NCBI GenBank assembly: GCA_046075485.1
Contig: JBJTQF010000035.1
Span: 1 to 33,651 of the forward strand
From: Myxococcota bacterium
Lineage (GTDB): Bacteria > Myxococcota_A > UBA796 > JAJRTE01 > JBJTQF01
Reading direction: 5' to 3'
Length of the DNA: 33,651 nt
Positions 19,410 to 19,718 of the stretch are shown one piece after another. A program made the translations under genes and the position numbers. The notes under the pieces were generated by a model. That model was not told the origin of the DNA and made no database searches. It saw only the letters and a list, made by a program, of their open reading frames with translations. Numbering within the stretch: the first letter of the stretch is position 1; each line of letters starts with the position of its first letter.

Positions 19410-19499
19410 CCTTGTCTGCACCATCCTTGTCTGCACCATCCTTGTCTGCACCATTCTTGTCTGCACCATCCTTGTCTGCTCCATTCTTGTCTGCTCCAT
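19410..19499. repeat. 6 tandem copies of a 15-bp unit (CCTTGTCTGCACCAT), each containing an NtrC-like TGCACCA half-site
   Basis: The array was read directly. There are three perfect copies, then the variants TCTTGTCTGCACCAT, CCTTGTCTGCTCCAT and TCTTGTCTGCTCCAT. It lies between the DJ-1 stop and the sigma-54 promoter of the MVP gene. Confidence 0.9.
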
Positions 19500-19645
19500 T
19501 TTGGAGCGCCTTGCCTTCTTTTGGTGCATGAGCCTGCGCCATGTGGACGCATGAAGCCCTCACCTCGACACTTCCACCTATCTCTTGAGCCATTTTAATC
19601 AGCACTTCTCGCGGCCACCCGCCTCTTTTGAGGGGGCCCAGATGT

Positions 19646-19660
19646 TGGCACAAGACTTGC
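19646..19660 (+). promoter_or_regulatory. sigma-54 (RpoN) -24/-12 promoter upstream of the vault-protein gene
   Basis: TGGCAC-AAGAC-TTGCC matches the TGGCAC-N5-TTGCW consensus with correct GG/GC spacing. It lies about 60 bp upstream of the ATG at 19719. Confidence 0.6.
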
Positions 19661-19718
19661 CAATTCATCGAGCCGTGGTCAACGTGGACCACACTTTCAC
19701 ATGAAAGGAGCCCTTTAC

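Follow-up and report, generated by a model that had tools for sequence, protein, structure and literature searches.

The stretch of DNA analysed here (the window) is one contig of 33.6 kb from a metagenome-assembled genome, with a GC content of about 59% and the record label 'Myxococcota bacterium'. It contains a gene for a bacterial major vault protein (MVP) homolog, and the present work concerns the DNA upstream of this gene and the way in which it may control MVP transcription. The MVP protein of the window is deposited as NCBI MFM7199857.1, under the same label. It matched the Pfam families MVP_shoulder (6.8e-28) and Vault_3 (7e-9), and solved structures of eukaryotic MVP (PDB chains) matched it at about 1e-28 over residues 184-682. 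A total of 740 MVP homologs were found, chiefly in Myxococcota, Acidobacteriota and Planctomycetota. Upstream of the gene lie a promoter element of the sigma-54 type, a palindromic dyad resembling the binding site of an NtrC-family bacterial enhancer-binding protein (bEBP), and a tandem array of 15-bp units, the last of which forms part of the dyad. The features on which the argument depends are the following.

19407 to 19499, no strand: 15-bp tandem array of 6.2 units (Tandem Repeats Finder, 94% matches, score 158).
19492 to 19508, no strand: upstream activating sequence (UAS) site 1, the dyad TGCTCC-ATTTT-GGAGCG (TGCTCCATTTTGGAGCG), with the core GCWCC-N5-GGWGC at 19493-19507; predicted binding site of a bEBP dimer.
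19513 to 19527, no strand: candidate weak UAS site 2, GCCTT-CTTTT-GGTGC; proposed from its right half and TTTT spacer, which fit the consensus, while the left half is degenerate.
19646 to 19660, + strand: sigma-54 -24/-12 element TGGCAC-AAGAC-TTGC (TGGCACAAGACTTGC), an exact match to TGGCAC-N5-TTGC present as a single copy in the window.
19671 to 19673, + strand: predicted transcription start, from the standard -24/-12 geometry (C19660 taken as -12, giving a start at about 19672).
19719 to 21926, + strand: gene for the MVP homolog (bacterial major vault protein), 735 aa, with the Pfam domains MVP_shoulder and Vault_3.

An earlier note on this DNA, made from the sequence alone, had described a textbook -24/-12 element in front of MVP. 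This description was correct, as judged both by the exact agreement with the consensus and by the conservation of the element upstream of Myxococcota MVP orthologs. The GG and GC doublets are exactly 10 nt apart, and the element faces MVP, 73 nt upstream of the ATG at 19719. By chance, 0.15 copies of TGGCAC-N5-TTGC are expected in the window, and the pattern was seen in 13 of 100 shuffles. Neither a sigma-70-like promoter (a -35/-10 pair) nor a terminator was found in the intergenic region 19338-19718. Myxococcota generally encode rpoN.

To examine the promoter in other genomes we used a sample of 62 MVP loci from species-representative genomes of other species, in which the 150-400 nt before each MVP start were scanned for GG-N10-GC with at most two mismatches to TGGCAC-N5-TTGC. 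Such an element was present no more than 150 nt upstream of MVP in 42 of the 62 loci, the background rate being 0.087 per 400 nt of single strand. Nearly all of the 42 elements lie 22-73 nt before the start codon, and their pooled consensus, YGGCACG-N4-YTGCW, is the canonical sigma-54 pattern. Candidates with three mismatches occurred in 9 further loci and were left out of the count. Among the 11 loci without any candidate, 9 are labelled Acidobacteriota/Blastocatellia, Planctomycetota, Clostridia or Methanosarcinales; the element is absent from the Acidobacteriota and Planctomycetota MVP loci and from the two loci labelled Clostridia and Methanosarcinales. Several of the loci that lack it carry TTGAC-N17-TAnnnT instead.

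The element was also followed at closer range, in three contigs that span the same intergenic region and were obtained through a 90%-identity MVP cluster (L066, L067 and L068). MVP of L066 shares 93% nucleotide identity with that of the window, while for L067 and L068 the identity is 83% in MVP and just 58% in the intergenic region. In all three relatives TGGCAC-N5-TTGCCA stands exactly 73 nt from the ATG, and the changes are confined to the spacer. A -24/-12 promoter that functions would be expected to leave such a footprint, and the sigma-54 reading of the MVP promoter is, at the level of sequence comparison, strongly supported.

The DNA upstream of the orthologous promoters was enriched in the k-mers CGCTCC/GGAGCG and TGCACC/GGTGCA, which together give the dyad GCWCC-N5-GGWGC; the k-mer analysis yielded no other conserved upstream motif. 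When the zone from -110 to -20 relative to the promoter was searched in the 42 sigma-54-bearing loci, allowing one mismatch, the dyad was found in 27 of them, compared with 3.6% of control 90-nt windows. Half-sites with other spacers (N2-N4 and N6-N9) occurred in 0-5 loci, and direct or everted arrangements in 2-3. Counted from the T of the -24 box, the ortholog dyads start between -42 and -111 (mode at -56), which puts the dyad centre at about -75 from the predicted transcription start, and their fuller consensus reads C-GCWCC-nTTTy-GGWGC-G. The dyad also tends to keep company with the promoter element: it was found in only one of the 11 loci without any sigma-54 candidate (L033), and the four other matches outside the 42 loci all fall in loci with a three-mismatch promoter candidate.

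In the window, the exact 5+5+5 core GCTCCATTTTGGAGC occurs once, at 19493-19507, where it is made up of the last array unit (TGCTCCAT) and the adjoining flank (TTTGGAGCG). The dyad lies at -153, with its centre at about -172 from the predicted transcription start, and an identical copy is found at -152 in L066. In L067 and L068 there are dyad-like sites at -141 (TGCACCGGAATGGGGCA), -120 (TGCTTCACGCTGGGGCT) and -76 (TGATCCAAGCGGGGGCA), spaced 21 and 44 bp apart in L067. The NtrC enhancer has been published in the forms TGCACCAnnnTGGTGCA (PMC8743547) and TGCACC(A/T)4TGGTGCA (PMC4987338), and site 1 agrees with the latter at 14 of 17 positions. The likeness to an NtrC site that the earlier note had remarked on is real, but the conserved element is this dyad and not, as had been assumed, a series of half-sites in direct repeat.

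Site 2 begins 20 bp past site 1, or about two helical turns, and its right half is weaker in L066 (GATGC). Clear dyad pairs 20-22 bp apart are present in L067 as well as in L032 and L033. In several orthologs the UAS dyads are tandemly duplicated, namely in L032 (3834-3885, 22 bp), L033 (2998-3036, 20 bp), L054 (1326-1360, 15 bp) and L026 (-71/-56 from the promoter, 15 bp), and local tandem duplication would seem to be the way in which multi-site MVP enhancers arise. The dyad gave no indication of a wider regulon within the loci examined: 14 exact copies occur elsewhere in them, none followed by a sigma-54 element, and no NtrC-type dyad was found upstream of the type III glutamine synthetase gene of the window.

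With regard to the activator, the earlier note had argued that it must act in trans, and this was confirmed by the lack of the bEBP signature GAFTGA in all six frames of the window; nor did any of the 19 large window open reading frames (ORFs) that were scanned match the Sigma54_activat domain. A six-frame search for GAFTGA in 65 loci revealed bEBPs near MVP only in L032 and L039, and a bEBP gene within 4 kb of MVP in 2 of 62 loci is roughly the chance level for bEBP-rich genomes. No conserved neighbour or operon partner of MVP was found either, the biggest neighbour cluster comprising 6 loci. Since MVP has neither conserved neighbours nor an adjacent bEBP gene, the promoter-plus-dyad module travels with the MVP gene itself, and it is presumably ancestral for Myxococcota MVP genes.

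The tandem array occupies the DNA 147-239 nt upstream of the -24 box. The earlier note had reported six copies of a 15-bp repeat, each with TGCACCA; the array is indeed there, but TGCACCA is found in only four of the six units (units 1-4, at 19417, 19432, 19447 and 19462), the last two (units 5 and 6, at 19477 and 19492) having TGCTCCA. The difference matters because it is the last TGCTCCA unit that, together with its flank, forms the dyad, which had been overlooked. Aligned to the dyad, the array units read GCWCC-ATYCT-TGTCT, that is, with a perfect left half and without the right half (7 of the 10 specified positions). The period of 15 bp corresponds to 1.43 helical turns, so that each half-site is turned almost the opposite way around the helix from the next, and units and dyad are not in helical phase.

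Comparison of copy number among strains, as the earlier note had recommended, showed that it differs (1, at least 2 and 6). The window has 6.2 units, and a 99%-identical strain from another sample (L001), in which the contig ends within the array, has at least 2; its units read GCACC where the window has GCTCC. A single unit is present in L066 and L069, and L067 and L068 show no trace of one. At the corresponding place L066 reads ...CCCTCATCCTTCTCTGCTCCATTTTGGAGCG, that is, one unit and no array, leaving a 75-nt gap in the alignment. The copy number of the window derives from a metagenome assembly, and as the Logan assemblies made from short reads of this strain are broken within the array, the count of six could be a slight underestimate. 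Exact-pattern scans of JGI metagenome contigs for the array unit and for closer relatives gave no match. The presence of the array in the window and L001, of one unit in L066 and of none in L067 and L068 points to a recent expansion in the window/L001 lineage, and the array is most likely a lineage-specific slippage product of the UAS left half-site and its upstream flank. As the expansion is distal to both dyad and promoter, copy number leaves the spacing between these two unchanged.

Slippage of this kind is not confined to the MVP promoter. A second array in the window (24346-24381, 13 bp x 2.8) is single-copy in L066 and L067, and 27018-27108, a convergent intergenic region in which one would not expect a promoter, holds arrays as well. 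In a 17-kb alignment of window positions 16000-33651 with L069 (90% identity), most indels of at least 6 nt either fall at tandem repeats or include them (periods of 11-17 nt), and tandem units have been gained in both strains, in intergenic as well as coding DNA. The window-side indels are located at 17214, 19411, 24348, 27092 and 33196, and L069 has insertions at window positions 28250, 30791 and 21932; the last of these, the only one of the three examined for repeats, contains a tandem duplication. Given that most indels between the two strains are linked to tandem repeats, short-unit slippage is a major source of indels in this lineage. A core common to the window arrays was also looked for, and the only candidate, GTCTGC in three arrays, two of them coding, was judged unconvincing. 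L069 carries 136 extra nucleotides relative to the window at 5626-5770, between the MVP and glutamine synthetase stop codons, including CCTGCATCACGAGCG twice.

Taken together, we consider it probable that MVP is transcribed from a sigma-54 promoter activated by an NtrC-family bEBP at the dyad, and that the array is a recent, near-neutral product of slippage. That transcription depends on RpoN, that a bEBP binds and acts by looping, and that the array is nearly neutral are all inferred from sequence patterns. In such a scheme, E-sigma54 would form a closed complex at 19646-19660, and a bEBP encoded elsewhere in the genome would bind the dyad at 19492-19508 as a dimer, possibly helped by the weaker site 2, 20 bp downstream. 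The bEBP would then oligomerise, loop over about 150 bp and contact the closed complex, thereby driving open-complex formation. Transcription would begin near 19672 and yield a 47-nt leader with a 5'-proximal hairpin and a strong Shine-Dalgarno sequence. Slippage would have added, on the side of the dyad away from the promoter, five more copies of the left half-site with 10 nt of its upstream flank, and the array would contribute at most a ladder of weak, out-of-phase half-sites.

Several observations count against this interpretation. One exact dyad in 33.6 kb is in itself unremarkable (0.51 expected), so what supports it is where it lies and that it is conserved. The dyad of the window and its close relatives, moreover, lies about 100 bp farther upstream (-153) than in most orthologs (-56), and the homology of the sites is therefore deduced from their sequence and not from their position. 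Fifteen of the 42 sigma-54-bearing orthologs have no dyad when one mismatch is allowed. The array is the largest tandem expansion of the region, it amplifies exactly the half-site, and its 15-bp unit has the length of the dyad. Finally, the UAS itself is tandemly duplicated in L032, L033, L054 and L026, for which reason selection on duplicated UAS material has to be reckoned with.

These last points lead to the explanation that the earlier note had favoured, namely that the array is itself the UAS: a ladder of half-sites in direct repeat that would nucleate a bEBP oligomer, with copy number tuning MVP expression in the manner of a contingency locus. Both TGCACCA (4 units) and TGCTCCA (2 units) do fall within the GCWCC consensus, close strains do differ in copy number, and tandem duplication of UAS material recurs in the four loci just named. 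The window also has one strong dyad compared with two or three in several orthologs, so weak sites could aid oligomerisation. In spite of this we regard the explanation as unlikely. The units hold the left half only, with TGTCT in the position where the dyad has GGWGC, and with their 15-bp period consecutive half-sites come to lie almost on opposite sides of the helix. The direct geometry GCWCC-N10-GCWCC is found in 6 of the 42 loci as against 27 for the dyad, and 4 of 42 orthologs have a tandem array in the UAS zone where 1.8 would be expected, which is no significant enrichment. Furthermore, L066, L067 and L068 lack the array and yet keep promoter and dyad, and the lineage expands unrelated units elsewhere, including at sites where a promoter would not be expected. 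The effect of the array on expression is most likely small or nil. There is a slender chance that its half-sites measurably modulate activation, and it is improbable that the array is a selected, copy-number-tunable auxiliary enhancer in which the ladder of weak half-sites sets the ease of bEBP oligomerisation. If it were, slippage would provide strain-to-strain or heritable population-level tuning of a sigma-54 promoter, and duplication of the UAS would be a general route to extra MVP enhancer sites, as in L032, L033, L054 and L026. Of all that the earlier note proposed, the tunable enhancer of direct repeats has the least support, and we do not regard the array as evidence for a new mechanism.

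A second explanation retains the sigma-54 promoter and assigns the dyad to a regulator of another kind (for instance a repressor, a nucleoid protein or an activator of the sigma-70 type), while the bEBP would bind at another place or act from solution. The dyad centre, at about 75 nt from the predicted start in most orthologs, is at the near edge of the usual UAS range, which would suit such a regulator, as would the 15 sigma-54-bearing loci that have no clear dyad; the assignment of the dyad to a bEBP is itself made from its sequence. We nevertheless give this explanation little credence, because the dyad co-occurs with the sigma-54 element and is missing where the element is missing (with the exception of L033), because its geometry and sequence match the NtrC enhancer, and because two or three dyads 20-22 bp apart, as in multi-site enhancers, are present in several lineages. 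The k-mer enrichment, too, brought up no other conserved motif upstream.

It is very improbable that the resemblance to a sigma-54 promoter is coincidental, the sequence TGGCA-N7-TGCCA (19646-19662) being the operator of some other dimeric regulator and MVP being transcribed by a sigma-70-type holoenzyme. The sequence is a near-perfect inverted repeat in the window, L066 and L067, and it gives a minus-strand match with two mismatches; distant orthologs, however, keep GG-N10-GC, YGGCACG and TGCW but lose the palindrome (e.g. TGGCACCTGACTCGCA), and the intergenic region offers no sigma-70-like -35/-10 pair. That the repeat encodes pentapeptide repeats in a minus-strand ORF (19228-19692, 154 aa) is scarcely credible, since although the ORF is present in the window and a 15-bp unit preserves the frame, the minus-strand ORFs of L066 (97 aa) and L067 (111 aa) start and end elsewhere and do not form a conserved unit, the ORF runs over the entire promoter and into the 3' end of the DJ-1 gene, and conservation is confined to short blocks (the dyad, CTTGAGC..TTTT and the -24/-12 element) in a manner that is not codon-like.

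Besides the promoter, the dyad and the array, four further features were recorded in and next to the intergenic region.

18792 to 19337, + strand: DJ-1/PfpI family gene, upstream neighbour of MVP (Pfam DJ-1_PfpI, 4.3e-34).
19584 to 19596, no strand: conserved block CTTGAGCnnTTTT, downstream of the dyad and upstream of the -24 box, invariant in close relatives.
19675 to 19692, + strand: hairpin GTGGTC-N6-GACCAC in the 5' untranslated region (UTR), from the minimum free energy fold of 19672-19730 (z = -1.65, weak alone).
19704 to 19710, + strand: Shine-Dalgarno sequence AAAGGAG, of which AAGGAG is kept in relatives.

Within the conserved block, CTTGAGC and TTTT are invariant in the window, L066, L067, L068 and L001 despite the 58% intergenic identity to L067. 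It is possible that the block, which would lie inside the DNA loop, is a DNA-bending site or one of the type bound by integration host factor (IHF). As a specific IHF site between UAS and promoter we considered AATCAGCACTTCT, which was rejected for its poor fit to the consensus (3 mismatches to WATCAANNNNTTR).

With a start at about 19672, the predicted 5' UTR of MVP is about 47 nt long. The hairpin begins 3 nt past this start, and its stem persists in L066 and also in L067, where one U-A pair has become U-G, whereas the loop varies; it could stabilise the mRNA or act as an operator. An ATG at 19701 was considered as the MVP start and rejected, the relatives having ATA or ATT at this position. 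No Rfam match reached the gathering score anywhere in the window; a sub-threshold narK match (22 bits versus 43) spans the promoter and the 5' UTR.

The leaders of the orthologs appear to be of two kinds. In about 18 of the 42 sigma-54-bearing orthologs the start codon follows the -12 GC by exactly 13-14 nt and is not preceded by a Shine-Dalgarno sequence (L019-L023, L025-L027, L037, L039, L043, L044, L046, L051, L053, L056 and L057; also L040, L041 and L058), an arrangement that predicts leaderless mRNAs, with a leader of 0-2 nt, from the sigma-54 promoter. The remaining sigma-54-bearing loci have leaders of 35-53 nt with GGAG. In one relative (L072, 1392-3598, ERR14822423) the MVP call is split into two ORFs, 345 and 405 aa long, that overlap, which could reflect a frameshift or an assembly error.

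The MVP gene is monocistronic, and the next gene downstream is the convergent type III glutamine synthetase gene. Upstream, the DJ-1/PfpI neighbour is also present in L066, L067 and L068. Its stop codon is 70 nt from the array, and the intergenic region between it and MVP measures 381 nt in the window and 305 nt in L066.

Two other sites in the window were recorded as separate observations. The divergent region between the glutamine synthetase (type III) and Ser/Thr kinase genes (24091-24457) is better conserved among the window, L066 and L067 than the flanking coding sequence, with long blocks of 100% identity compared with 83% identity in MVP. It includes a perfect inverted repeat, CAAAATGT-GCG-ACATTTTG, at 24239-24257 and a TTGACA box at 24322, and neither an Rfam match nor an NtrC-type dyad was found in it. 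A second sigma-54-like element, TGGCATCGCGCCTGC (2 mismatches; 13569-13583, - strand), lies about 134 nt upstream of a PD-(D/E)XK_2 transposase-like gene (12272-13435).

The proposed arrangement has much in common with enterobacterial promoters of the glnAp2 type. They share the GG-N10-GC core and a 17-bp dyad (5+5+5, with an A/T-rich spacer) located 70-180 nt upstream, often as two sites about two helical turns apart, and their activator is encoded elsewhere. The target is different, being an MVP (vault-shell) homolog and not a nitrogen-assimilation gene, and the type III glutamine synthetase gene beside MVP has no such upstream dyad. The central base of the MVP half-sites is often T/A (GCTCC..GGAGC) rather than A/T, and the spacer reads nTTTy. 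A comparison closer to hand is with the sigma-54/Nla regulons of Myxococcus xanthus, which belongs to the same phylum. In regulons of this type, large repertoires of bEBPs act in trans on developmental and stress genes. No publication tying an Nla protein to MVP was found, and the MVP dyad was not matched to a described Nla site. The array, for its part, is similar to the promoter-proximal variable number tandem repeats of contingency loci in having a short unit upstream of a promoter and a copy number that differs between close strains. Unlike these, it is distal to UAS and promoter and leaves the spacing of the functional elements unaffected, and the lineage shows equivalent gains and losses of units at unrelated sites, both intergenic and coding.

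A published description of MVP homologs in bacteria contains no regulatory analysis and does not mention promoters (bioRxiv 10.1101/872010), and no publication that connects MVP with sigma-54 came up in our literature search. That bacterial MVP is under conserved control of the sigma-54/NtrC type therefore looks unreported. The mechanism itself, a sigma-54 promoter with an NtrC-type enhancer, would be standard; it is the target and the breadth of conservation that appear to be new. In addition, the array offers a clean, dated case of slippage duplicating half a regulatory site, and a natural experiment with one versus six copies.

The function of vaults and of MVP is a long-standing open question. 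A sigma-54 promoter combined with an NtrC-type enhancer across Myxococcota would mean that MVP expression is gated by a dedicated, signal-sensing ATPase activator. The dyad provides a concrete bait for DAP-seq or pull-downs and a motif by which co-regulated genes may be defined, and the activator, together with its signal, would reveal the condition in which the bacterial vault-shell protein is needed.

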